Shown one piece after another: positions 1,579 to 63,002 of a stretch of 64,000 bases of DNA. Both the position numbers and the translations under genes were made by a program. The DNA is taken from NCBI GenBank assembly GCA_025830695.1, contig GCA_025830695.1_4111.1; one strand, given 5' to 3'. The stretch's first letter is position 1. Each line of letters starts with the position of its first letter. The notes below the pieces were generated by a model. It saw only the letters and a list, made by a program, of their open reading frames with translations, was not told the origin of the DNA and did not search any database. This DNA comes from a phage.

Positions 1579-1773
1579 ATGACTGACAAAACATTTTATG
1601 ATCGTATTATTGAAGACAAGGGAGTTTTTGATAAGGTAGTTTATGACCTAGAACTTATGATCAAAGACGCACCGAACCCCCGTGTGCGAACCCAAGCAGA
1701 ATTTGCAAAAACTTATCTTGTTCAAGTTCAAGCAATCTGTGAAGCAATTAAAAAACACAATGATAGTGCTTGA
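1579..1773 (+). CDS. hypothetical small protein
   Basis: 64-aa ORF with GGAG upstream of ATG. Confidence 0.45.
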   Translation: MTDKTFYDRIIEDKGVFDKVVYDLELMIKDAPNPRVRTQAEFAKTYLVQVQAICEAIKKHNDSA

Positions 1774-1798
1774 CAGAACTAATGTTCTATCCTATAAT
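1770..1798 (+). promoter_or_regulatory. sigma70-type promoter (TTGACA-N17-TATAAT)
   Basis: TTGACA at 1770-1775, TATAAT at 1793-1798, 17-nt spacer, upstream of IF3-like gene. Confidence 0.6.
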
Positions 1799-1842
1799 TA
1801 CTATCGAACAAAACATTAAAATCATATTGGAGCTTTTATTAC

Positions 1843-2905
<1,063 letters not shown>

Positions 2906-2918
2906 AATATAGACTTAA

Positions 2919-5082
<2,164 letters not shown>

Positions 5083-26007: not shown

Positions 26008-26436
26008 ATGAATATCGAACAAACTATCCGTGAACATTCTTTCTTCGCTCCAGAAACTGGTCGTGTTATTGAGAGCGTCAAAATCGAAGAACTAATGGTC
26101 AATGTTAAATACAAAGAACCAAATGATGAGATTAGCAGTACTTTTTGTGCTCTACGTGCACCATTCCGTAATGAAAAAGCTAAGAAACCAGCATATGTTC
26201 TTGCCATTGCACTGGGTTGTGTTGTAAAACTTGCAGTTGATGAAAATCTTCTGAATATTAAAGTTGCACCAAGCAATGACGATGAAAACATTGATTTGAA
26301 CTTTGATGGTTCTCTTGATGAAGATGTATTTTTCCAACAGTCACTTGTTTACGACTTCCGTACAGTGACACATTCTCACATCAAGTTCATTAATGAAATG
26401 GTTGAGATTGTTGCTGAATACGAAGAATCTCTCTAA
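26008..26436 (+). CDS. EExFFQxS-motif family protein (member 1)
   Basis: C-terminal DEDVFFQQSLVYD. Confidence 0.6.
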   Translation: MNIEQTIREHSFFAPETGRVIESVKIEELMVNVKYKEPNDEISSTFCALRAPFRNEKAKKPAYVLAIALGCVVKLAVDENLLNIKVAPSNDDENIDLNFDGSLDEDVFFQQSLVYDFRTVTHSHIKFINEMVEIVAEYEESL

Positions 26437-26445
26437 GTAAATACA

Positions 26446-26470
26446 AAAGCCTCCATTATGGAGGCTTTTA
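26446..26470 (+). terminator. intrinsic terminator
   Basis: AAGCCTCCA-TTA-TGGAGGCTT followed by TTATC. Confidence 0.6.
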
Positions 26471-26489
26471 TCACATAAGGAAATGAAAT

Positions 26490-27041
26490 ATGATAGACCA
26501 AATTAAAATCCTTACAAAGCAAATCACTGATTTTCTTTCTGATAAAGATGGATTTAATACAGAAGTAAAAATGCACGGTGTTAGTGTTGATGTAATTGCA
26601 CCAAATGGTAATGTAACAAGTTACGACATGTATGAATTACTTCTTTATACTCTAGCAGTACGTAAACTAGGTAGTGATATTGAACTCAATATCAATACTG
26701 ATGAAAGTGGGAATAAAATTTTTGCAATCAACACCAGTGCTAAATTCGATATCAGTACTGAAATTAAAAAAATAAATGAAAGTTTTATTGGCTTTAAGCA
26801 TGAATCAATTCAAAGTGTTTTTATTGGAAAGCAAACTTCTAATAGTGAATGCCCATATTGTGTAATGACTTTATATAAAGATGGAAACTGGATGCGTCAA
26901 GATTTAGTATTTGCTGAACTTCTGTATGCATTTACACATGAACTTAAAATCGAATTGGACGATAGTGTTTATTGCTTTAAGAAAATTCGAAATATAACTA
27001 AAGATATACAAACCCAACTTAAAGAATTAAATGATAAATAA
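26490..27041 (+). CDS. hypothetical protein
   Basis: 183-aa ORF, RBS AAGGAAA. Confidence 0.55.
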   Translation: MIDQIKILTKQITDFLSDKDGFNTEVKMHGVSVDVIAPNGNVTSYDMYELLLYTLAVRKLGSDIELNINTDESGNKIFAINTSAKFDISTEIKKINESFIGFKHESIQSVFIGKQTSNSECPYCVMTLYKDGNWMRQDLVFAELLYAFTHELKIELDDSVYCFKKIRNITKDIQTQLKELNDK

Positions 27042-27147
27042 ATATACCAGAAATGGTTAACATATCATGTTACTTTCCTCCCTTACATAATAATGATGCG
27101 TTATTATATTTTCATTTTGTTCTTATTCCCCTTTTGGTACAAAATCA

Positions 27148-27170
27148 TTTTAGTACTGCCCCGATCTTCG
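27148..27170 (+). terminator. intrinsic terminator
   Basis: GCCCCGA-TCT-TCGGGGC followed by ATTTTT. Confidence 0.65.
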
Positions 27171-27201
27171 GGGCATTTTTCTTATCTAAAATTGAGGATA
27201 T

Positions 27202-27597
27202 ATGAAGAACAATATTGGAACTTCAATAATTAAACCACTTTCTTATTACCTTGAAAAATTTAGAAGCACAAATGGTAATAAATTTAATAATATATTTCAG
27301 TTCTCTCATAAAGAATATATTACAATTGATCATTTTTCAAAGAAACTAATGTATGTAAATGATAATAGTCATATTATTAAATTATCATTCGATATTGAGT
27401 TAGATAAATTAACATTTACGGAATACATTAATCAAAAAACTTCTTTTTTATGTCAATACAATAGGAAAGTATATAGTAATATTTCTATGTATCTAAATGA
27501 TGAATATCACTTTCAACAATCTACAATAGAAGAAGTATTGTTCAGTACTGAAGAATTAAAAGAACTATATTACTGGTATAATTATTTCACATCTTGA
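27202..27597 (+). CDS. EExFFQxS-motif family protein (member 2)
   Basis: C-terminal NDEYHFQQSTIEE. Confidence 0.6.
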   Translation: MKNNIGTSIIKPLSYYLEKFRSTNGNKFNNIFQFSHKEYITIDHFSKKLMYVNDNSHIIKLSFDIELDKLTFTEYINQKTSFLCQYNRKVYSNISMYLNDEYHFQQSTIEEVLFSTEELKELYYWYNYFTS

Positions 27598-27652
27598 CAT
27601 TATTGTGGGTTTATCCTACAATACATGATGATGCTGCATTGAGGATAAATTT

Positions 27653-28063
27653 ATGAGTTTAGATTTACACAATGAACTAAAATATTTTTTAGATTTGGAC
27701 ATATCAGAATTGAACCACCACGTCAATCATATGACTAGTACTGTATGGTGGTCTAATGATCAAGACGACCCAATTATCCAACTAAGTGATGAATCGTCAA
27801 TTATGCGATTTTATAAGATTAATTATAAAAAGAACATCAAGATCACATATGTACCATACAAAAACATACTACTAGTCGAAACACTTAATCCAAGTTCTTT
27901 ATTAAAAATCACAGATTTAGATACATTACAAACAAGTGAATCTTTATTCCAACGTTCATTAGTTGATGATCTTGGTGGTATTACTTTTGAAGATATATTA
28001 CAATTGAAGAATATGTATAGTGAATTGTTGGAGATTAAAAACACTTTAGTAATGGGGAATTGA
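27653..28063 (+). CDS. EExFFQxS-motif family protein (member 3)
   Basis: C-terminal SESLFQRSLVDDLGGITFED. Confidence 0.6.
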   Translation: MSLDLHNELKYFLDLDISELNHHVNHMTSTVWWSNDQDDPIIQLSDESSIMRFYKINYKKNIKITYVPYKNILLVETLNPSSLLKITDLDTLQTSESLFQRSLVDDLGGITFEDILQLKNMYSELLEIKNTLVMGN

Positions 28064-28064
28064 T

Positions 28065-28469
28065 ATGGTAAGTTTACTAGATATTGATAATACCAGTTTA
28101 GTGCTGGTGAAAAAAGGTTTAATTCCCAATTCTACAAAAATTGATTATGCTGTTATTGAAACAAATATTGGAAATATCTGGTACGACTCTGAAAGGGATA
28201 TTGTGTTTAGCTGTGTAGACAGTGATCGATCTGAATGTTGTAGAGTCGGTCATGACGGACAATTTGTTTTTGAATTTCGTTATTGGAAGGACGCAAAATT
28301 TCACCAAGAACTGGTTGCTTTGTCAAATGAACTATATACAGAAGAATCGTTCTTCATGGCTAGTACTATTAATGATTTTGGTTCAGTTACATTTGAGTAC
28401 TATAAAAAGATATACGCACTATCCAGAGAAGTTATGAAAATTATCAGAACTGCTGAAGGTAAAGAATAA
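28065..28469 (+). CDS. EExFFQxS-motif family protein (member 4)
   Basis: C-terminal TEESFFMASTINDFGSVTFE. Confidence 0.6.
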   Translation: MVSLLDIDNTSLVLVKKGLIPNSTKIDYAVIETNIGNIWYDSERDIVFSCVDSDRSECCRVGHDGQFVFEFRYWKDAKFHQELVALSNELYTEESFFMASTINDFGSVTFEYYKKIYALSREVMKIIRTAEGKE

Positions 28470-28470
28470 C

Positions 28471-28848
28471 ATGACTACTATATATGATATTTTGGGTGTT
28501 CTGAGTAGAAATATAGATGATGATTTTGTTATTGTTCAAGATACTAGAAATACATTTCAACTACCAATAGGTTCACCAGATAGGTTAATTTTTAATAGAT
28601 ACTCAAATGAACTAACTTACATCCATGATGGGATTGCAATTGTATCAGTTTCTATAAACGACTATACAATACGATATGTATATGACTTCAACGATTATTG
28701 TACAAGAATCCACAGTATTGATATTTCCGAAGAGGAACTATTCCAATTGTCATTGATTGAGAAAAATGTAATAGGAATTACAGAAATTGGTATTATTAAA
28801 AAAGCATTAAACTATACAAATATAAGAATTAATGGTGGGTGCAGATGA
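28471..28848 (+). CDS. EExFFQxS-motif family protein (member 5)
   Basis: C-terminal SEEELFQLSLIE. Confidence 0.6.
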   Translation: MTTIYDILGVLSRNIDDDFVIVQDTRNTFQLPIGSPDRLIFNRYSNELTYIHDGIAIVSVSINDYTIRYVYDFNDYCTRIHSIDISEEELFQLSLIEKNVIGITEIGIIKKALNYTNIRINGGCR

Positions 28849-29300
28849 ATGTTGACGAAATAAAAAATCATTTTGAAATTGCAATGTCATGTGAATTTGA
28901 CACACAACGTGTTCATGACCCGAAAGAACATATACGCATTTGTTGTGAATTGTCAGATGATTGTAATATTTTTATTGGAAAAACCTATGACATGATCGAT
29001 CTTTCATGTATAGATCCATTGGAAAGAAAAACAAAATATTTATATCTGTACAACACAACATCAGATACGATTGCAATACAACTAATATCAACCACAACAT
29101 CCCAAAGTTATTATAACATAACTGAGGTTAGTAGTTTAACGTTAACCGAAGAAGGATTCTTTCAACAATCGCTTATTCGTGAAATTGGTGTTAGTTATGA
29201 TGAGTTAAATGTATTAGTAGATTGTTTCGAAAAATTGAGTACTTTTGTATTATCCCTTTTTAATATACAGTCGCAAAATCCAATGGTGGTGAAATGCTAA
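28839..29300 (+). CDS. EExFFQxS-motif family protein (member 6)
   Basis: C-terminal TEEGFFQQSLIREIGVSYDE. Confidence 0.6.
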   Translation: MQMNVDEIKNHFEIAMSCEFDTQRVHDPKEHIRICCELSDDCNIFIGKTYDMIDLSCIDPLERKTKYLYLYNTTSDTIAIQLISTTTSQSYYNITEVSSLTLTEEGFFQQSLIREIGVSYDELNVLVDCFEKLSTFVLSLFNIQSQNPMVVKC

Positions 29301-29734
29301 ATCCAAGTAAATTTCTCCACTTACTTTCGATAACATCAATACCGGATCTTACCAGTGAAACTAATGAATATCGTGAAGCTGGGGTGGTGTCTATGGAACT
29401 CGATACATTTGACCACAAATGCTATGTGACATATGACCCACCGCGTTATGGTAAAGAACATTCTTCTTTTATTTTTGTATTCGTATACACTGTATATGAT
29501 AATACAACACTTGATGATGTTTGTATTGACACTTACGAAATTTGTGATAATATCATAACTGATGACAACAATAACTCATTTGATATGTCACTATATAACA
29601 CAGAAGAATCGTTGTTTCAACTTAGTACTGTTATTGATGCACCATCATTAGAAGATATAAAACAATTTCAAGAACATCTTGACGCAGTTCGTGAGATGTT
29701 CTATAATCATTATCCAGAAGTAGAGTTCAATTAA
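29294..29734 (+). CDS. EExFFQxS-motif family protein (member 7)
   Basis: C-terminal TEESLFQLSTVID. Confidence 0.6.
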   Translation: MLNPSKFLHLLSITSIPDLTSETNEYREAGVVSMELDTFDHKCYVTYDPPRYGKEHSSFIFVFVYTVYDNTTLDDVCIDTYEICDNIITDDNNNSFDMSLYNTEESLFQLSTVIDAPSLEDIKQFQEHLDAVREMFYNHYPEVEFN

Positions 29735-29748
29735 CTAAAGGTAATAAG

Positions 29749-30009
29749 ATGACTAAAGTAGTTCGTAAACGCCACATGATGAACATGGATGAATTTCGCA
29801 CATTTGACAAATATCGTACTATGTTTCGTATGCTTTCACAGGGCCGTCCAATCGTCATTGTAACAGAGAATTACATGTCACCTGAGATTATGTTTGGTAA
29901 TTATGAAAAGGTCTTCATGTTGTACGTGAAGCGTGGATTACTTACAATCAAGACATTAGCTGAAGCAACTGATGAAGATATGGATGGTGATAATACCTTT
30001 ACCATGTGA
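29749..30009 (+). CDS. hypothetical protein
   Basis: 86-aa ORF, RBS AAAGG. Confidence 0.5.
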   Translation: MTKVVRKRHMMNMDEFRTFDKYRTMFRMLSQGRPIVIVTENYMSPEIMFGNYEKVFMLYVKRGLLTIKTLAEATDEDMDGDNTFTM

Positions 30010-30081
30010 GGAAATATATGTCTGAAAAGCCAAAAGAACCATTAGATCGTGATGATGATTTTTATGACGAACGATATGGAG

Positions 30082-30339
30082 ATGATGATGAGTGAACATA
30101 GTGCTGTGCTTAAAAAGATTTTAAAGGAACTTGATGGTGAGTTTAATGTCACAGAAGAAGACTATCAGCATTGGAAGAAAGGTTTTGAACAACTAACCGA
30201 GTATGATAAAGTGTTCAATATGATTGGCGTAATTAGCCAGTACTTACTCGGTGGAGGACGTGCAAGTGCTTCAATTCTGGCATCTGCAATCATCTGTACA
30301 TCACGATGGTGTGATGAAAAAAGTTTGGAAGATTTCTAA
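30082..30339 (+). CDS. hypothetical protein
   Basis: ORF-track ORF; start among clustered ATGs after GGAG; exact start uncertain. Confidence 0.4.
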   Translation: MMMSEHSAVLKKILKELDGEFNVTEEDYQHWKKGFEQLTEYDKVFNMIGVISQYLLGGGRASASILASAIICTSRWCDEKSLEDF

Positions 30340-30391
30340 ATAAGATGCTATAATATATTATAGTACCTTAACAATATAAAAAGGATTTTAT

Positions 30392-31252
30392 ATGAAACCT
30401 ATCCGAGTACTTTCTCTTTTTAATGGAATGAGTGTGGGATATATGGCATTGCAAGATGCTGGTATCCCAGTTGAAAAATATTATTCATCCGAAATTGATA
30501 AGTACGCAATAGCTGAATCTCAATCTAACTTTCCTGATATTATCCAATTGGGTGATGTAACTAAGTGGAGAGAATGGGATATTGAGTGGGACAAAATAGA
30601 TTTATTAATGGGTGGTTTCCCATGCCAAGCCTGGTCAGTTGCAGGTAAACAGGGTGGTTTAAATGATATACGTGGGCAGTTATTTTTAGTAATGGTTGAA
30701 ATTTTTGATCATATCAAAAGTCTCAATCCTAACTTGAAATTTCTGTTTGAAAATGTTAAAATGAAGGAAGATTTCAAAGAATACATTAATAGTATTTTAG
30801 GAATCACGCCAGTACTGATAAACTCCCAGCATTATACGCCTCACTTCAGGCAGAGATATTACTGGTACAGTACTGATAAGCTTTTTATACCACCTGCATT
30901 ATCCAATGCACCTAAACTTCAAGATATTATTGAAGATGGTTGGTACACTGACAGAACCGCTTCGTACTGTATAGATGCTAACTATTTTAAAGGTGGTGAT
31001 TGTAACCAGTACTTTAATAAATCCAGACGACAATTGGTGTTTCGTGACCCAGTGATCAGTCGTCAATATCTATTAGAGAATGGCAAAAGAAATATTGACT
31101 ATAGACACTTAAGTGTAGTAGAATGTTGTAAATTACAGGGTGTTCCTGAAGATTTCTTTAAAGTGTCTAGTAAGACACAAGCATACAAAATGCTTGGGAA
31201 TGGATGGACTATGCCAGTTATATCACATTTACTAAGAGAGATATTCTTTTGA
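30392..31252 (+). CDS. DNA (cytosine-5)-methyltransferase
   Basis: Motif I-like LFNGMSVG, motif IV GFPCQAWSVAG, motif VI FENVK, motif X MLGNGWTMPV; preceded by TGcTATAAT. Confidence 0.75.
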   Translation: MKPIRVLSLFNGMSVGYMALQDAGIPVEKYYSSEIDKYAIAESQSNFPDIIQLGDVTKWREWDIEWDKIDLLMGGFPCQAWSVAGKQGGLNDIRGQLFLVMVEIFDHIKSLNPNLKFLFENVKMKEDFKEYINSILGITPVLINSQHYTPHFRQRYYWYSTDKLFIPPALSNAPKLQDIIEDGWYTDRTASYCIDANYFKGGDCNQYFNKSRRQLVFRDPVISRQYLLENGKRNIDYRHLSVVECCKLQGVPEDFFKVSSKTQAYKMLGNGWTMPVISHLLREIFF

Positions 31253-31734
31253 ACATAAACAAATACCAAACTTATATAAAACGTACAGAAAGTTTCAAAC
31301 GGCTGGCTGTAAAATCTGAATTAGAATTTAATTTGTATTATCCTAATATTGGTGATGAGGTATTTTATTGCTCTCATTCAAAGAATGGAACTTTACTTAA
31401 ATCGGGTAAAGGAACTATTGTTGATATGACCGCAAATTTCAGAGGTAAACTTAATGTAATGTACAAAGTACAAGATTCAAGTACTGAGTGTATTCATGAA
31501 GTGATGCATAACATACCTGCATATCCAAAAGATTTTGTTCAGCTAATATCTCGAAGGGAGAAACCTATGTTTTATTGTGGTTACGATAAATTAACCAAAC
31601 AAATTATTCCTAATACTATGGGAAAATTTAAAAGTGATGTGAAATCTGAACTTGAAAAGAAATTTGGCACGTCATGGGAAACTGAAAACGAGTTTATCGA
31701 AATTCGTTTAATTGAAATTACTATACTTGAATAA
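31249..31734 (+). CDS. hypothetical protein
   Basis: ORF-track frame; possible TTG start overlapping MTase stop; start uncertain. Confidence 0.4.
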   Translation: MNINKYQTYIKRTESFKRLAVKSELEFNLYYPNIGDEVFYCSHSKNGTLLKSGKGTIVDMTANFRGKLNVMYKVQDSSTECIHEVMHNIPAYPKDFVQLISRREKPMFYCGYDKLTKQIIPNTMGKFKSDVKSELEKKFGTSWETENEFIEIRLIEITILE

Positions 31735-31740
31735 TTACAA

Positions 31741-31765
31741 ATCCACGCATTGCGTGGATTTTTCA
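31741..31765 (+). terminator. intrinsic terminator
   Basis: ATCCACGCA/TGCGTGGAT palindromic hairpin followed by TTTTTC. Confidence 0.6.
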
Positions 31766-31776
31766 TAGGTGCATAT

Positions 31777-32292
31777 ATGCCAATTCCTTATGTTAAAATT
31801 ATTAATAATATTCTCGATTCATGGGAAGATGTTATTACTGGTAAAAAGAAACCATCACCAGTACATGCTTTATCTGGGAAACTTCAATTCAGAATGTCAA
31901 ACCAAACTGAAACATTTAATAATCATGATATTTGCATTACATTAAAAACACCTGTTAGTATTGTAATTAAAAAAAATAAAGATGATGAATTGACATTATC
32001 TATTGGTCGTGATAAAATCATTTTAAGTAATTTGTCTGAAGAAGAATTCTTTCAAAGAAGTACTATTATCGATATGAAAGATTTCACATATGAATCATTG
32101 GTTGAACTCAATACACGTTTTAACGATATTCAGGAACGATTGCGACCAATTCTTCGTATCGAAGAAGAAGCCTGGATTGAAAGTATTAGGAAGATGCAAG
32201 AAATGTTGAAAGAAAATATTAACAATCTGGGTAAAGCTACAATGGAATTTGGTAAAACTTTTAAACTGAACTTTTCAAAGGATCGTAAATGA
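31777..32292 (+). CDS. EExFFQxS-motif family protein (member 8)
   Basis: SEEEFFQRSTIID; start trimmed to ATG 31777 downstream of terminator. Confidence 0.55.
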   Translation: MPIPYVKIINNILDSWEDVITGKKKPSPVHALSGKLQFRMSNQTETFNNHDICITLKTPVSIVIKKNKDDELTLSIGRDKIILSNLSEEEFFQRSTIIDMKDFTYESLVELNTRFNDIQERLRPILRIEEEAWIESIRKMQEMLKENINNLGKATMEFGKTFKLNFSKDRK

Positions 32293-32744
32293 AAATTGAT
32301 AATTTGATTCATGTTTTAGGATCTTTACATAAAATATTATCACATCTACATGAGATAAAGAAACTGGGATTTAACATCTCAAATTCAATTGAAACTACAT
32401 TTAAATATCAATCAATTACTGGTGATGGTTATTACATAATCGAATATACTTATGAAACCGATCCAGACTTCTATCCTCTTACGTTGAGAATTTATCCAAC
32501 AAATCCGAGAGGAATTCACGACATATCATCAATTTCACTTGATCCAGATGGTGAAACGAGTATTGAATACAATAATGATTCAAAACCAGAATTTTACATT
32601 GATGATATTAAAATGATGTTCAACGATGAATATGTTTTCCAACAAAGTACTGTGCATGATGTTGGAAGTACTAATGGACAATTTTGGAATACATGTTATT
32701 ATCATATGATTGAAATTTGTAAATTACTAAAAGGTGATGAATAA
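32289..32744 (+). CDS. EExFFQxS-motif family protein (member 9)
   Basis: NDEYVFQQSTVHD. Confidence 0.6.
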   Translation: MKIDNLIHVLGSLHKILSHLHEIKKLGFNISNSIETTFKYQSITGDGYYIIEYTYETDPDFYPLTLRIYPTNPRGIHDISSISLDPDGETSIEYNNDSKPEFYIDDIKMMFNDEYVFQQSTVHDVGSTNGQFWNTCYYHMIEICKLLKGDE

Positions 32745-33127
32745 TGAAATACTGCATTGAAGTACATTACACTACAGGGGACACTGAAACTGAAGATTCA
32801 GTTACCAATACATTGGATGTTCAATGGGAATCAAAGGATGAGGCAGTTGTAGCATTACAGTCTTTGAAAGAGCATTGGGTATTCTTTAAGAAACTCGATG
32901 ATGCATATAGTAACGAACGTGCTACAATAATCGATGAAGCCAAACATAAAGAATGGTTTGATCCAATGTCATGTGAATTCTCTTTCTTTGTAAAAATTGG
33001 AGATGAAAAAATCCCAGTACGTACACCGTGGAACGGCTACTTTGAAACTCTTCATAATGCACGAGTTGTCGCTGTTGATAATCCTGAACAAATCGATTTC
33101 GATTCATTGGACTGGAAAAAACTATGA
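32744..33127 (+). CDS. hypothetical protein
   Basis: 127-aa ORF, overlapping start/stop. Confidence 0.5.
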   Translation: MKYCIEVHYTTGDTETEDSVTNTLDVQWESKDEAVVALQSLKEHWVFFKKLDDAYSNERATIIDEAKHKEWFDPMSCEFSFFVKIGDEKIPVRTPWNGYFETLHNARVVAVDNPEQIDFDSLDWKKL

Positions 33128-33567
33128 CAGTACTGCACCAATTGAAGAAGGTTAAGCATCCAGTTGTATATGAGGACTGGAAACGTCAGAAGCTGATGGG
33201 TGATTTTTATTTCCCAAAATCTAAAGTACTAGCAACGTCAAAAGCTATATACTTGAAATATAAGGATGAAGATTGTTTGTGTATTCAAATGGGATTCCAT
33301 CCTAAAGTTGGTTTGTTTACAACAAATCAAACATTTTATAAATTTAGAATTCAAAAAGATACATTTAGTATTCATATCGAAAAACATGATGTACAAGATA
33401 CAATTTATCGTGTGGAAAGTGAGCCTTTGAATCTTGTTGAGATCCCGTACAATAATTTAGAAGAAATGTACTTTCAGCAGTTGACAATACAAGAAGACTT
33501 TGGTATGATAGGACTTCAAGAGTTAGAGATGATTAAACAAATTCGTGATATCTACTTTAAGGAGTAA
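33124..33567 (+). CDS. EExFFQxS-motif family protein (member 10, divergent)
   Basis: LEEMYFQQLTIQEDFG. Confidence 0.55.
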   Translation: MTVLHQLKKVKHPVVYEDWKRQKLMGDFYFPKSKVLATSKAIYLKYKDEDCLCIQMGFHPKVGLFTTNQTFYKFRIQKDTFSIHIEKHDVQDTIYRVESEPLNLVEIPYNNLEEMYFQQLTIQEDFGMIGLQELEMIKQIRDIYFKE

Positions 33568-40108: not shown

Positions 40109-40444
<336 letters not shown>

Positions 40445-40445
40445 A

Positions 40446-40628
40446 ATGACACACGAAGAATGGATGTCCAAACAGCATAAAGAACATGACTGCTTTGGGA
40501 ATGGCATTCGTCAGGTACATTATGATATATTAAGAGATGAAAATCTTTTCAGGTCATATGTTTTGGATACCAGAAAACCCTGGTTTATATGCGAACTGGC
40601 ATTTAGAAAGTCAAATAATCAAAACTAA
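40446..40628 (+). CDS. MTHEEW-family small protein (member 3)
   Basis: MTHEEWMSKQHKEHDCFGNGIRQVHYDILRD... Confidence 0.55.
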   Translation: MTHEEWMSKQHKEHDCFGNGIRQVHYDILRDENLFRSYVLDTRKPWFICELAFRKSNNQN

Positions 40629-40644
40629 ACAAGGAATACAAAAA

Positions 40645-40863
40645 ATGGAAACAACTTTATTTGAAGTTATTCAATCATTAAAACCTGAAGATGAGGTTCA
40701 AGTACTACTACATGGTTATCGTGTAAAAGGTACTGTGGTTTTAGTCAATGATACAACATTGGTTATTACAGAAACAAACCCATATGATAGTAATCAACTT
40801 GCCAATATCCATATCGATATCACTGGAATTATTGGTGTCGGTGTATCTAAAACACTTGCATAA
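40645..40863 (+). CDS. hypothetical protein
   Basis: Trimmed to ATG after AAGGAA. Confidence 0.5.
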   Translation: METTLFEVIQSLKPEDEVQVLLHGYRVKGTVVLVNDTTLVITETNPYDSNQLANIHIDITGIIGVGVSKTLA

Positions 40864-40916
40864 ATCATTAATTCATTATATAATGATTATCACTGGTTCT
40901 AGATGAGGATAATATT

Positions 40917-41189
40917 ATGCATTTTGAAAAATTCAACGTAAATCGTAACACACGCATTGAAGTTCTTTATGAAACTCAAGACACCATTAGTATTCGTACA
41001 AGTAGTGGGGATGTATATCATGACTGTACGATTGGCTGGGAACAGGGAAGGACGCGTAGTGCAGTATTTGATAATTATCGCTTTTATCAAGGAGACACTA
41101 CGATTTGGCCTGAATACGTAGAAGATATTGCGTTTGAAGATGAACATAAAGATGAATTTATCAAATTTAATCCTCAAACTGAATCATAA
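40917..41189 (+). CDS. hypothetical protein
   Basis: 90-aa ORF, RBS GAGGA. Confidence 0.5.
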   Translation: MHFEKFNVNRNTRIEVLYETQDTISIRTSSGDVYHDCTIGWEQGRTRSAVFDNYRFYQGDTTIWPEYVEDIAFEDEHKDEFIKFNPQTES

Positions 41190-41193
41190 ATAA

Positions 41194-41323
<130 letters not shown>

Positions 41324-41326
41324 AAT

Positions 41327-41427
<101 letters not shown>

Positions 41428-41429
41428 CA

Positions 41430-41590
<161 letters not shown>

Positions 41591-41594
<4 letters not shown>

Positions 41595-41751
41595 CACATG
41601 AAGAATGGATGAATGACATTAATTTTAGATATTCGGGTATCGGTAAATGGCTAAAGTATCATTGGGAATTCATTTCAGAGCCACATCTGTATGATAAACT
41701 TATCAACGATCCAGCATATGAAATGTACTTAATTGAACTACTGGTACGATT

Positions 41752-41755
<4 letters not shown>
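41591..41755 (+). CDS. MTHEEW-family small protein (member 5)
   Basis: 54 aa, about 80 percent DNA identity to member 4; ATGA overlap. Confidence 0.5.
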
Positions 41756-41917
<162 letters not shown>

Positions 41918-41925
41918 AAAAAAAG

Positions 41926-42335
<410 letters not shown>

Positions 42336-42339
<4 letters not shown>

Positions 42340-42371
42340 CTAAATAATTCAGTACTGAGGATATTAATATG
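42336..42371 (+). promoter_or_regulatory. degenerate copy of the promoter cassette
   Basis: TTGACTAAATAATTCAGTACTGA then a poor -10. Confidence 0.3.
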
Positions 42372-42396
42372 TTTAAAGATGAACGTCCAGATTTGT

Positions 42397-42444
<48 letters not shown>

Positions 42445-42449
42445 ATCAG

Positions 42450-42782
42450 ACGTATATGGTGTAAGTTACGTCGATGCAATCCAGAACAAGATCTCTGGTA
42501 CTCTAGGAAGTGGTGAATGTTAACCTAGACGGGTTTGATAATTGGACGATAGGCAATTATTACTTGACTAGCAGGTTTAAACTAGAGGTGACTATCCTTC
42601 ACCAAACTGGAAAACCGGATGGACTTTTATTTAAAAGGGTAAGGCGTGGAAATATGTTTACAGAAGTTGCTTTTAGTAGCCTGTACGCCCCACGTCAAGG
42701 TAGCCGAAAGGCAAGTTAAGACGGGTGGTTATAAAGCTGAATTAACAGCGGCGTTTAAAAGCGTCACCATCCATTTTTTTTT
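42450..42782 (+). ncRNA. candidate structured non-coding RNA
   Basis: About 330 nt without a credible ORF, visibly GC-richer than flanks, promoter upstream and T9 run at 3' end. Confidence 0.3.
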
Positions 42783-42798
42783 AATTAAAGTTGGTGAT

Positions 42799-43608
<810 letters not shown>

Positions 43609-43632
43609 ACGAAATTACAATAGGAAATTAAA

Positions 43633-43818
43633 ATGCAACTTTTAATTCTTTCAATATTGTATATTATTATAATGGTTCCGATATCAATACGTTTAATTAC
43701 ACTTGAACGATTTTTATCGAAACATGGAAATAGATCTATGATCTTAGTACCAATCGGGCTTATATTGTTTGGTATTTTTGCATTTATAATGGGAATTAAC
43801 GCTACATTCATTTCATAG
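43633..43818 (+). CDS. small membrane protein
   Basis: 61 aa, two hydrophobic helices. Confidence 0.45.
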   Translation: MQLLILSILYIIIMVPISIRLITLERFLSKHGNRSMILVPIGLILFGIFAFIMGINATFIS

Positions 43819-43827
43819 GAAACAAAT

Positions 43828-44085
<258 letters not shown>

Positions 44086-44093
44086 GAATTTAA

Positions 44094-44495
44094 ATGAAAA
44101 AGAATGACTTGATCAAAATGCTTCAAGAAATTGACGGCAATCCAGAGATTGTTATTTGGAATGGATACGTCGATGATTATATGAACATCGAAAAAGGCTT
44201 GACTAAAATCACTCTAGTCAAAGAAACCGAACAGTTTCTTCAGGGTGCATTAGAGCACGAATGGTGTGAACGTAACAATACATTCGACATTCCAGAAGAC
44301 CAACGAACCAAGATTGCAGAACGTGCTAAAGAACTGCATAAGAAACGTGAATACGATTTCCAGAACCCATATGTCACTGAAGACGAATTCAATCGCTGGT
44401 ACGGTAAAAAGAAATTGATAAAGTATGTCCTTTCACCTAAACTACGTGGTAAGACTTCACTTGGTGTATTCAACGCCGCAGACTTAAACTACTAA
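44094..44495 (+). CDS. hypothetical protein
   Basis: 133-aa ORF. Confidence 0.5.
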   Translation: MKKNDLIKMLQEIDGNPEIVIWNGYVDDYMNIEKGLTKITLVKETEQFLQGALEHEWCERNNTFDIPEDQRTKIAERAKELHKKREYDFQNPYVTEDEFNRWYGKKKLIKYVLSPKLRGKTSLGVFNAADLNY

Positions 44496-44507
44496 GAGAG
44501 TATTTAA

Positions 44508-44981
<474 letters not shown>

Positions 44982-45016
44982 CAGGGGAGGTTGTGATTCC
45001 CGATTCAGTAGCTTAT

Positions 45017-45139
<123 letters not shown>

Positions 45140-45140
45140 T

Positions 45141-45275
<135 letters not shown>

Positions 45276-45277
45276 TA

Positions 45278-45334
<57 letters not shown>

Positions 45335-45419
45335 AGTAAGAGTAAAAATGAAAGTAAGTAAAAAAACTACCAAGCAGCTTGAAGAACTTTGTAGTGCTGC
45401 ACCTATGCCGACTCTTGGC

Positions 45420-45520
<101 letters not shown>

Positions 45521-45532
45521 TATCTTACTTCT

Positions 45533-45622
<90 letters not shown>

Positions 45623-62283: not shown

Positions 62284-62484
62284 ATGTTTACTTTATATCT
62301 TGCAGTAGTACTAACTAATGGTGAAATCACTCGCACCGTTGGTGAAGGTGTATATAAAACACCTGAGCAGTGTTACTCTGCAACTCATTGGCCTCGTGAT
62401 GCTGGTGATGAATCTCGCACTGAATACAAATGTATGAAGGTTAAAGGTGATTTTGTAAATCTAAAGGTTATTGAGACTAAGTAA
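62284..62484 (+). CDS. hypothetical protein
   Basis: 66-aa ORF, RBS AAGGA. Confidence 0.5.
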   Translation: MFTLYLAVVLTNGEITRTVGEGVYKTPEQCYSATHWPRDAGDESRTEYKCMKVKGDFVNLKVIETK

Positions 62485-63002
62485 TGGATATTAATGAGTT
62501 GTTGAAATTAGTGTTTAATCGTGAACGCCGCGATACAAGACCAATTGAATATCAAGATGTGATACGCATTGAAACTGATTTCTGTTATGGTAAAACAACT
62601 CATGACCTTTTGAATCTCTCTGGAAAACGCTATGCTGATGTTTGTTTTTCAGAGAGAAGTGATGGTTCAGAAATAACGAGTACTGATATTGTTTGTTACG
62701 CACGCAGTGCTGATAAATCTTATGAAATAGAACTTATATATTCCCCTAGTTCTAAAACAAATCATCACCGCCATATTTTATATGATGTTTACACACCACC
62801 TGGTATTGCTGAATATTTTGTTATTGATTATAGTACTGAAGAAAATGTGTTTCAACAAAGTTTGATTCATAACTTTGAGGTGAATGATCCATTAGTACCA
62901 AAGTTGTTCAAACTACTTGACACCATAGATGTTGATTTTGAATTTGTTATGTGCATTAGAACTTCTTTATTCAATGAATTCATGGAACTTTTTAATATAT
63001 GA
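62484..63002 (+). CDS. EExFFQxS-motif family protein (member 21)
   Basis: TEENVFQQSLIHN. Confidence 0.55.
   Translation: MDINELLKLVFNRERRDTRPIEYQDVIRIETDFCYGKTTHDLLNLSGKRYADVCFSERSDGSEITSTDIVCYARSADKSYEIELIYSPSSKTNHHRHILYDVYTPPGIAEYFVIDYSTEENVFQQSLIHNFEVNDPLVPKLFKLLDTIDVDFEFVMCIRTSLFNEFMELFNI

Follow-up and report, generated by a model that had tools for sequence, protein, structure and literature searches.

An intact gene for a stand-alone C5-cytosine DNA methyltransferase lies at positions 30392 to 31252 on the plus strand of the 64,000-nucleotide stretch of phage DNA analysed here (the window). Its product is best explained as an active, SAM-dependent enzyme of Asteriusvirus that methylates the phage DNA against host restriction, a reading to which we assign a probability of about 0.7. 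The gene is already annotated in phage 121Q (gp91) and in dozens of GenBank records, and the papers on phAPEC6, CBB, RaK2, Sharanji, and UE-S1 have already read it as a source of protective methylation. Because the same annotation and interpretation are public, the finding is an ordinary one: the orphan methyltransferase of this phage group is already known, and as it stands its detection here carries little weight, since the gene was annotated and its protective role proposed before.

Gene structure, motifs, and predicted fold

The methyltransferase gene is real and intact. It is an ATG-started open reading frame (ORF) in the window's ORF list that encodes 286 amino acids and ends with TGA, preceded by an RBS and a promoter-like sequence. 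The features of the locus are as follows.

30325..30354, plus strand: sigma70-like promoter match, TTGGAA, an 18-nt spacer, and an extended −10 element TGcTATAAT (consensus scan, 10 of 12 matches plus the TG)
30380..30385, plus strand: RBS AAAGGA, 6 nt upstream of the ATG (read directly from the sequence)
30392..31252, plus strand: C5-cytosine DNA methyltransferase coding sequence (ORF list, PF00145, TIGR00675, phrog_116, tblastn, and AlphaFold model)
30410..30439, plus strand: motif I, LSLFNGMSVG, residues 7–16, the S-adenosylmethionine-binding loop (L7, S8, L9, F10, and G12 invariant in 38 homologs)
30611..30637, plus strand: motif IV, GGFPCQAWS, residues 74–82, with the catalytic Cys78 at 30623–30625 (G75, P77, and C78 invariant in 38 homologs)
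30740..30757, plus strand: motif VI, FLFENV, residues 117–122 (E120, N121, and V122 invariant in 38 homologs)
30848..30865, plus strand: motif VIII, RQRYYW, residues 153–158, aligning with RARYFW of DNMT3 (R153, R155, and W158 invariant in 38 homologs)
30869..31096, plus strand: short TRD, approximately residues 160–235 (boundaries estimated from where motifs VIII and IX lie)
31100..31222, plus strand: motifs IX (YRHLSVVECCKLQGVPEDF, residues 237–255) and X (YKMLGNGWTMPVI, residues 265–277) (R238, L240, E244, G269, N270, and G271 invariant in 38 homologs)

The initial annotation had placed a C5-cytosine DNA methyltransferase gene at exactly this position, and the call is borne out by the exact ORF, the RBS, and the profile matches of the 286-aa protein. 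These are Pfam PF00145 (E = 7.5e-38; 131.2 bits, cutoff 22), TIGR00675 ("dcm"; 119.2 bits, above the cutoff of 100.65), and phrog_116 (E = 5e-60), scores that, as sequence matches, far exceed chance. A scan of the region found 47 promoter-like sites, against 44 expected from shuffled sequence; given that there is no excess, the site at 30325..30354 is a plausible rather than a demonstrated promoter. Judged from the sequence, the gene probably has its own host-type promoter, and its expression timing, like its catalytic activity, is something we infer.

All catalytic motifs are present in the canonical order, and their key residues are invariant among the 38 homologs, whose identity extends down to ~50%. 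Motifs IV (GFPCQ), VI (ENV), and X (GNG), which had been described as clear, are indeed found at residues 74–82, 117–122, and 265–277, respectively, and the catalytic cysteine is retained; motifs II (SSEID), III (LGDV), and V were also located. In motif I, the protein has an FxGxS variant; the aligned stretch of DNMT3 is FDGIATG, with the pattern FxGxA. Two cores of the TRD, SYCIDANYFKGG (residues 191–202) and KSRRQLVF (residues 210–217), are conserved in the family. The AlphaFold model (pLDDT 93.1, pTM 0.90) predicts a two-domain Rossmann-type fold with a small TRD, and in a Foldseek search of the PDB the best 50 matches were all catalytic domains of DNMT3A/B/C (TM ~0.75–0.81, E ~1e-22). By family and predicted fold, the protein is thus a complete DNA (cytosine-C5) methyltransferase, with DNA as its presumed substrate in vivo.

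In characterised C5 enzymes, the glutamate of motif VI protonates N3 of the target cytosine. By analogy with its family, the phage enzyme would act by base flipping: once the target cytosine has swung out of the helix, Cys78 (PC motif) would attack C6 and Glu120 (ENV) would protonate N3, whereupon the methyl group of SAM would be transferred to C5 and beta-elimination would free the enzyme. In its most likely role, the enzyme would act on phage DNA during replication, methylating a short motif, and, alongside very extensive site avoidance, may thereby blunt methylation-sensitive host restriction enzymes at sites that the phage cannot eliminate.

Conservation and genomic neighbourhood

The window derives from an Asteriusvirus jumbo coliphage; it is 100% identical to SHEFM2K over positions 29500–32500 and >99% identical to PBECO4, 121Q, and phAPEC6. 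The methyltransferase protein is identical in PBECO4, SHEFM2K, phAPEC6, and slurp01, and shares 99.7% identity with 121Q gp91 (tblastn), 75–78% with its counterparts in CBB, GAP32, and Erwinia and Xanthomonas phages, and 63.6% with its ortholog RaK2 gp194. An ortholog was present in every one of the 54 Rak2-like jumbo phage records found, the hosts of which include Escherichia, Klebsiella, Salmonella, Cronobacter, Pectobacterium, Erwinia, and Xanthomonas. Relative to phage ECO103, the sole difference in the gene is synonymous, and dN amounts to 0.157 in the comparison with phage A4 and to 0.265 in that with RaK2, dS being saturated; by these sequence comparisons, the gene is under strong purifying selection. 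Truncated or fragmented copies occur in the Salmonella-propagated SD-1_S14 and SD-6_S16 and in CMSTMSU; on some hosts, these phages may therefore manage without the gene.

In five sister phages (A4, TH47, JNE01, ph0011, and UE-S1), the coding sequence is interrupted, right at the catalytic Cys, by a LAGLIDADG intein; the allele in the window is without it. The insertion point corresponds to the junction 30622|30623, and phage A4 reads GGFP|C...VVHN|CQAWS, with canonical residues at the splice junctions of the intein.

The initial annotation had also noted that no restriction endonuclease is adjacent, and this holds by profiles. None of the 10 flanking ORFs had a significant Pfam match, PADLOC returned no match, nuclease included, in any flanking ORF scanned, and the PHROG matches of these ORFs were all of "unknown function". 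The 176-aa ORF immediately downstream (31204–31734) overlaps the methyltransferase gene and occurs only in Asteriusvirus-like sequences (four homolog clusters); its model is too poor (pLDDT 48.6) for a fold search or a nuclease call. Among 80 bacterial loci with homologs, the methyltransferase ORF was called in 77, and these had no recurrent nuclease neighbour; the genes around the bacterial homologs are phage-like, encoding SNF2 helicases, DPPY methylases, and HNH proteins. Because no nuclease is detectable in the flanking ORFs and none recurs beside the bacterial homologs, the label "orphan" stands, as a call based on profile searches, by which restriction enzymes are hard to recognise.

The gene interrupts an array of small paralogous genes in the manner of an insertion, and a tRNA cluster of the phage lies ~9 kb downstream. 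A search of the window for a second methyltransferase found no ORF of at least 120 aa with a (D/N/S)PP(Y/F/W/H) motif; the adenine methylases known from the literature are encoded elsewhere in the genome, outside the window.

Target specificity and possible roles of the predicted methyl mark

Knowing the target motif would help to predict which hosts therapeutic jumbo phages can infect and to interpret restriction digests of their DNA. Four routes to it were tried and abandoned. Homology to solved structures failed because none of the solved TRDs matches the TRD half significantly, apart from a weak full-length alignment to DNMT3B/C. The search for a cognate nuclease beside the bacterial homologs was dropped, as no nuclease recurs among the 77 loci. 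As for a mutational signature, an apparent 1.7-fold excess at CpG between the window and ECO103 (1% divergence), seen when all sites are counted, was gone once only synonymous third positions were considered (odds ratio 1.14, p = 0.57). Finally, the sites that escape avoidance follow no consistent rule and were rejected as the basis for a claim.

No report on the methylome of any Asteriusvirus was found in the literature. CpG methylation prevents cleavage by ClaI and NruI, and dcm methylation prevents cleavage by SexAI. DNA of phage fEgEco12, whose methyltransferase is 95% identical to that in the window and differs from it at two residues of the TRD, was reported to be cut as predicted by ClaI (ATCGAT), NruI (TCGCGA), and SexAI (ACCWGGT); this normal digestion indicates that methylation, if present, does not cover these three sites. 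The RaK2 paper, for its part, states that methylated CpG (5mCpG) was found by bisulfite analysis ("data not shown"), a statement that indicates C5-methylation of the DNA of a phage bearing an ortholog. These hints from relatives conflict. The initial annotation took the gene to imply 5mC at a specific motif in virion DNA; this, like the anti-restriction role, is the standard inference and a proposal for this phage.

MG1655 carries McrBC, and the close relatives Sharanji and slurp01 plate on this E. coli K-12 strain. McrBC restricts RmC-methylated DNA; growth on MG1655 therefore either constrains the possible specificities or demands a further counter-measure.

GCGC and many 6-bp palindromes are entirely missing from the genome, whereas GGCC, CGCG, ACGT, CACGTG, GTGCAC, ACGCGT, and CCWGG show weak avoidance or none. 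Site avoidance is thus extensive, and methylation would be only one anti-restriction layer. Palindromes containing CpG (CTCGAG, GTCGAC, TCCGGA, and GCGC) are purged as thoroughly as those free of it, so selection against restriction sites is evidently not relieved by methylation. Many digestion failures in Rak2-like phages could simply reflect missing sites.

A refinement of the preferred reading holds that the enzyme is a CpG-specific methyltransferase of the DNMT3 type, its short TRD reading CpG in the manner of animal DNMT3, and that the phage genome is CpG-methylated; we consider this conceivable though rather unlikely. It draws on DNMT3A/B/C being the best matches in both sequence and structure, with DNMT3B/C aligning over the full length, TRD segment included, and on genomic CpG depletion (rho 0.74) with TpG/CpA excess (1.23), although such depletion is common in AT-rich genomes. 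Between ECO103 and TH47 (15% divergence), C<->T differences at synonymous third positions fall preferentially at CpG (odds ratio 1.76, p = 2e-45). The effect is similar in all four NCG contexts and does not sharpen into a particular 4-mer or 5-mer, and codon usage confounds it; the synonymous signal is missing at 1% divergence. Equal purging of both classes of palindromes also speaks against CpG methylation, which would create McrBC (RmC) targets, and McrA targets as well, yet relatives grow on MG1655. The bisulfite statement for RaK2, whose gp194 is an ortholog, counts in favour, but its data were not shown, and the ClaI and NruI patterns of fEgEco12 DNA count against. A version in which a minimal phage enzyme shares with the animal de novo DNMT3 enzymes the fold, the short TRD, and a CpG-centred specificity, with flanking preferences that possibly spare ATCGAT and TCGCGA, appears a little less probable still. 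Were the enzyme CpG-directed, it would be of interest for the origin of DNMT3 and for small CpG methyltransferases; if the DNMT3-type reading were true, the Rak2-like enzymes would be the closest counterparts of DNMT3 in prokaryotic viruses and a 286-aa tool for CpG methylation, and it would have to be asked how a CpG-methylated phage escapes McrBC, McrA, and Mrr in E. coli K-12.

It is improbable, in our estimate, that the methyl mark serves something other than restriction evasion, such as self-marking against a phage nuclease that degrades host DNA, control of replication or packaging, or gene regulation. Site avoidance is so thorough that the methyltransferase looks partly redundant against classical Type II enzymes, and the gene is conserved in phages whose hosts differ widely, which would not usually be expected of a weapon against specific host enzymes; GCGC, moreover, is missing from two genomes that differ by 15%, which might, speculatively, reflect a GCGC-cutting activity of the phage itself. 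Against such roles, no nuclease partner or methyl-reader was identified near the gene, and the general view of orphan phage methyltransferases is that they counter restriction.

That the gene has decayed, or is merely carried along selfishly as a moron or as a homing target of an intein, and is currently inactive, seems very unlikely to us. Its inserted appearance within the array of small genes, the fragmented copies in a few relatives, and the intein homing site would fit, but the catalytic residues are all invariant, purifying selection is strong, and the protein is 100% identical over many isolates. Inteins, besides, persist in genes with needed products, and the splice-junction residues of the A4 intein are canonical.

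The motif CFT is specific to DNMT2. Least credible of all is a DNMT2-like enzyme that methylates cytosine in RNA, with the tRNAs encoded by the phage as its substrates instead of DNA: a "DNMT2" label in one GenBank record, the tRNA cluster downstream, and detectable homology to DNMT2 proteins (E 4e-10 to 1e-6) might suggest it, but these matches are limited to the N-terminal catalytic half and at least 13 orders of magnitude weaker than those to DNMT3, CID stands at residues 193–195 in place of CFT, the family also occurs in phage genomes without tRNA genes, beside DNA methylases and replication genes, and DNA methylation was reported by bisulfite analysis in RaK2.

Comparison with known methyltransferases

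Returning to the preferred reading of a protective DNA methyltransferase, the closest known proteins are the C5-methyltransferases of Rak2-like phages (121Q gp91, PBECO4, phAPEC6, RaK2 gp194, CBB, and GAP32; PHROG 116), which are the same or an orthologous protein. The locus of RaK2 gp194 (RaK2 alone was checked) resembles the window in that the gene lies among small hypothetical genes, and the window gene differs in nothing of substance from these annotated methyltransferases.

The labels HaeIII, Dcm, and DNMT2 in GenBank are misleading for a methyltransferase conserved in all of these 54 records. M.HaeIII (GGCC) and M.HhaI (GCGC) share the common catalytic core, with motifs I–VI and IX–X aligning (E ~1e-17 to 1e-18); unlike the phage enzyme, beside which none was found, they have a cognate endonuclease. 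In the C-terminal half, motifs IX–X are the only stretch aligning with these two enzymes: against M.HaeIII, the match covers 44 residues of these motifs (E = 8e-5), and the TRD segment scores −1.3 bits. With its TRD unaligned to that of either enzyme and not homologous to that of M.HaeIII, the label "haeIIIM" (slurp01 and Sharanji records) was rejected and is uninformative on specificity. E. coli Dcm and M.EcoRII (CCWGG) are likewise C5-methyltransferases found in E. coli, but the phage enzyme is without the Dcm-type N-terminal extension and TRD; "Dcm" (one record) was rejected on an NF007772 score of 21.4 bits (cutoff 710) and the cutting of fEgEco12 DNA by SexAI. The label "DNMT2" (one record) was discarded because the match is not full-length, covering mainly residues 1–126 and at most 2–157.

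The orphan or multispecific phage methyltransferases (the SPbeta/phi3T family, P1 Dmt, and actinophage methylases) are likewise without a nuclease partner and are thought to pre-empt host restriction. They resemble the phage enzyme in the N-terminal catalytic half only (32–38% identity over ~120–160 aa) and are larger than its 286 aa, and the Bacillus ones among them carry several TRDs. Inteins and other homing elements are known from actinophage methylase genes, as in the sister phages described above.

The catalytic domains of DNMT3A/3B/3C are the best matches of the phage enzyme in both sequence (E ~1e-23) and structure (TM ~0.8, 25–28% identity). By phmmer, residues 2–282 of the phage protein align with residues 4–275 of DNMT3C (E = 3.4e-23), short TRD included, and the match to DNMT3B is also full-length. 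The shared features are the size of ~285 aa, the order of the motifs, A/S where motif I otherwise has its second glycine, and a TRD that is short and holds a Q-L-(V)-F strand. Unlike DNMT3, the phage protein has no PWWP/ADD regulatory domains, its 286 aa corresponding to the catalytic domain alone, and gives no sign of DNMT3L-type or RD-interface oligomerisation; the CpG-reading TRD loop residues of DNMT3A have no confident alignment to it. Taken together, the sequence and model comparisons place the phage enzyme in a DNMT3-like subgroup as what appears to be a bare catalytic domain, distinct in architecture from a DNMT3 ortholog.

A solitary C5-cytosine methyltransferase gene

The initial annotation had proposed a C5-cytosine DNA methyltransferase with motifs IV, VI, and X, and this assignment was borne out by an exact ORF that matches Pfam PF00145 (131 bits, E=7.5e-38, cutoff 22), TIGR00675 'dcm' (119 bits, cutoff 100.65), and PHROG 116 'DNA methyltransferase' (E=5e-60). 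The locus comprises the following features:

30325-30354, +, sigma70-like match TTGGAA-18-TGcTATAAT, 5' of the methyltransferase gene
30380-30385, +, ribosome-binding site AAAGGA, 5' of the methyltransferase ATG
30392-31252, +, methyltransferase ORF (ORF list), ATG start, 286 aa followed by TGA
31204-31734, +, 176-aa ORF overlapping the methyltransferase 3' end by 49 nt

All three proposed motifs are present, as is the remaining canonical set in order: I (LSLFNGMSVG), II (SSEID), III (LGDV), IV (GGFPCQAWS), V, VI (FLFENV), VIII (RQRYYW), IX, and X (YKMLGNGWTMPVI). The catalytic cysteine, Cys78 of motif IV, is invariant in an alignment of 38 homologs that extends to ~50% identity, as are F10, G12, E34, D55, P77, E120, N121, V122, R153, R155, G269, N270, and G271. 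Promoter-like sites in this region number 47, with no excess over shuffled sequence (44.1); thus, calling the sigma70-like match a promoter of the methyltransferase gene is no more than plausible.

The orphan status is also supported. The five ORFs on each side of the gene belong to PHROGs of unknown function and gave no significant Pfam match, and those of them that were scanned with PADLOC gave no match there either. The overlapping 176-aa ORF has no match to a family with known function, and its structural model (pLDDT 48.6) is too poor for excluding a nuclease fold. The ORF is confined to Asteriusvirus-like sequences (4 clusters) and is therefore no regular companion of the methyltransferase family. 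Scanning one genome per bacterial species yielded 80 loci with homologs (identity ≤58%, mostly metagenome-assembled genomes), and no recurrent nuclease was found among the immediate neighbours at the 77 loci with a callable methyltransferase ORF; the recurrent neighbours are phage-like (SNF2 helicase, DPPY methylase, HNH proteins, and primase). Homologs number >8000 at E below 1e-10, and 788 phage records carry one; the family thus consists mostly of solitary methyltransferases borne by phages.

At least 10 small ORFs (125-172 aa; 26008-33567 and 62484-63002, +) share the C-terminal motif EExFFQQS(L/T)(I/V)xD, and their PHROG profiles cross-match each other. These ORFs are diverged paralogs arranged as an array; eight of them flank the methyltransferase gene, and it looks as if the gene had been inserted into this array. 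Six tRNA genes (Gly-tcc, Ser-tga, Ser-gct, Met-cat, Asn-gtt, and Thr-tgt) lie ~9 kb downstream (40131-45612, +); the window aligns poorly with the ECO103 4-12-1 genome at 41-45 kb, indicating a variable region.

Predicted activity, target motif, and restriction-site avoidance

Our main explanation, to which we assign a probability of about 0.7, is an active DNA C5-methyltransferase serving anti-restriction; confidence is high for the enzymology and moderate for the role. A host-type promoter of its own probably drives transcription, and the SAM-dependent enzyme would flip the target base and attack it with Cys78 as nucleophile and Glu120 as proton donor. Replicating phage DNA would thereby be methylated at a short motif and gain partial protection from methylation-sensitive host nucleases.

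The weak part of the initial annotation is 5-methylcytosine in virion DNA, and a literature search found no Asteriusvirus methylome. One refinement of the main explanation, which we hold only tentatively as a minor possibility, is a CpG-specific, DNMT3-type phage methyltransferase. For RaK2, whose gp194 is an ortholog with 63.6% identity, the published account is that the phage DNA yields only to enzymes unaffected by Dam, Dcm, CpG, and EcoKI methylation and that bisulfite analysis found methylated CpG (both 'data not shown'; PMC3622015). The methyltransferase of the relative fEgEco12 is 95% identical to that of the window, with a target-recognition domain (TRD) that differs at two residues only (V222T and S224N), and ClaI, NruI, and SexAI were reported to cut fEgEco12 DNA as predicted. 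CpG methylation blocks ClaI and NruI, and dcm methylation blocks SexAI (suppliers' tables); if these sensitivities are right, ATCGAT, TCGCGA, and ACCWGGT escape full methylation in fEgEco12, which excludes blanket CpG and Dcm-type methylation there.

Three computational routes to the motif were followed, and none is decisive. Neighbouring nucleases at the bacterial loci yielded none, and sites escaping avoidance followed no consistent rule. In the substitution spectra, the two Asteriusviruses ECO103 and TH47 show an enrichment of synonymous third-position C<->T differences at CpG (odds ratio 1.76, p=2e-45), to a similar degree in ACG, CCG, GCG, and TCG and without a prominent longer motif. The window versus ECO103 gave no such signal (odds ratio 1.14, p=0.57). 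Across the ECO103 genome, CpG is under-represented (rho 0.74) and TpG/CpA over-represented (1.23), a pattern that is compatible with CpG methylation, confounded by codon usage, and common in AT-rich genomes. Together, CpG depletion and C<->T enrichment are compatible with 5mCpG deamination, not diagnostic of it. E. coli MG1655, which carries McrBC, is the propagation host of Sharanji and slurp01. Since RmC-methylated DNA is a restriction target of McrBC (PMC12707154), the motif would avoid purine-mC, or a phage counter-measure would exist.

Restriction-site avoidance strongly shapes the genome. GCGC occurs 0 times in the 64-kb window (20 expected), 0 times in the 350 kb fetched of ECO103 (159 expected, z=-12.6), and 0 times in the 350 kb fetched of TH47, where 15% of aligned positions are mismatched with ECO103; GCGC is the sole 4-mer purged to zero. 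Some 20 other sites, GC-rich 6-bp palindromes or degenerate sequences, are likewise missing or all but missing across the genome: CTGCAG, CCATGG, GGTACC, GGATCC, CAGCTG, TCCGGA, GCATGC, GCTAGC, CGTACG, AGGCCT, CTCGAG, GTCGAC, TGGCCA, GAGCTC, GGTCTC/GAGACC, GGYRCC, CYCGRG, GRGCYC, YGGCCR, and RCCGGY. They include the sites of PstI, NcoI, KpnI, BamHI, PvuII, Kpn2I, SphI, XhoI, SalI, SacI, Eco31I, BanI, AvaI, and BanII, both CpG-containing and CpG-free. GATC stands at half its expectation, and CGCG, GGCC, CACGTG, GTGCAC, and ACGCGT show no avoidance. Over-representation was seen for GTAC (1.41-fold) and AGTAC (1.46-fold) in the window and genome; AGTACT has 918 copies in the 350 kb and 147 in the window, spread across the three reading frames and intergenic sequence.

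This purging indicates that methylation by the enzyme is one layer among several and not the main defence, and that much of the 'resistance to digestion' described for phages of this kind may come from a lack of sites. We consider a role other than anti-restriction unlikely, and partial protection stays the preferred role.

Relatives, selection, and an intein

Window positions 29500-32500 are 100% identical to Escherichia phage SHEFM2K and 99.1-99.9% identical to IA-38, SP27, phAPEC6, slurp01, 121Q, G17, Sharanji, and PBECO4, all Asteriusvirus jumbo myoviruses of ~350 kb. Thirteen records carry a protein with 100% identity; for 121Q gp91 the identity is 99.7%. The protective role put forward in the initial annotation has been published before for phAPEC6, and in similar terms for CBB (PMC5259590), RaK2 (PMC3622015), Sharanji (PMC11895373), and UE-S1 (PMC12805682), and in a jumbo-phage comparative overview (PMC7824862); thus, the gene is already known, and the interpretation is the conventional one, only partly supported.

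Synonymous sites are saturated against both the phage A4 extein (dN 0.157) and RaK2 gp194 (dN 0.265), and the sole difference from ECO103 is synonymous. Each of the 54 Rak2-like jumbo phage records found, from seven host genera, has an ortholog. These results argue that the enzyme works and is kept by purifying selection; a decayed passenger gene is very improbable. The match is partial or in pieces in OR699183.1 (SD-1_S14), OR699182.1 (SD-6_S16), and MH494197.1 (CMSTMSU), which could reflect gene loss or sequencing error; SD-1_S14 and SD-6_S16 are Salmonella-propagated and have smaller genomes (311-319 kb).

In phage A4, the ORF (632 aa, CDS 1732-3630) is interrupted at 1963-3000 by a 346-aa intein with Hint and LAGLIDADG domains (junctions GGFP|CFPAGT...VVHN|CQAWS). 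It sits directly before Cys78, which doubles as the +1 extein residue; the homing site in the window is 30622|30623, and the window allele is without the intein. Four further Asteriusviruses (TH47, JNE01, ph0011, and UE-S1) give the same split tblastn match starting at residue 78 and are therefore presumably carriers. The UE-S1 and fEgEco12 papers make no mention of this intein; inteins were already known in actinophage methylases.

Comparison with known methyltransferases

The records of these relatives label the protein 'DNA(-cytosine) methyltransferase'; in some the label is 'modification methylase HaeIII', 'Dcm', or 'DNMT2'. In a search with the C-terminal 161 residues, M.HaeIII matched 44 residues of motifs IX-X only, and the TRD segment gave no alignment with it; the Dcm subfamily model scored 21 bits (cutoff 710); and the similarity to DNMT2 proteins lies mainly in the N-terminal half (E 4e-10 to 1e-6). 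These three labels are therefore unsupported for specificity or substrate, and a tRNA methyltransferase, as the DNMT2 label might suggest, is scarcely credible.

Animal DNMT3C/3A/3B catalytic domains give the best solved-structure matches to this enzyme of the C5-METHYLTRANSFERASE kind (E ~1e-23), with residues 2-282 aligning to DNMT3C residues 4-275; M.HaeIII and M.HhaI rank after them (E ~1e-17 to 1e-18), chiefly over the N-terminal half. A confident AlphaFold model from the 38-sequence alignment (pLDDT 93.1, pTM 0.90) retrieved only DNMT3A/B/C among the top 50 Foldseek matches in the PDB (TM 0.74-0.81, 24-28% identity). The enzyme is thus a compact catalytic domain on its own, with a short TRD. 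The likeness is not new, as virome studies routinely put the KEGG term 'DNMT3A' on such phage genes (PMC11309003). Bacterial restriction-modification enzymes are not the best matches among solved structures; the phage protein resembles the catalytic domain of DNMT3, but without its PWWP and ADD domains.
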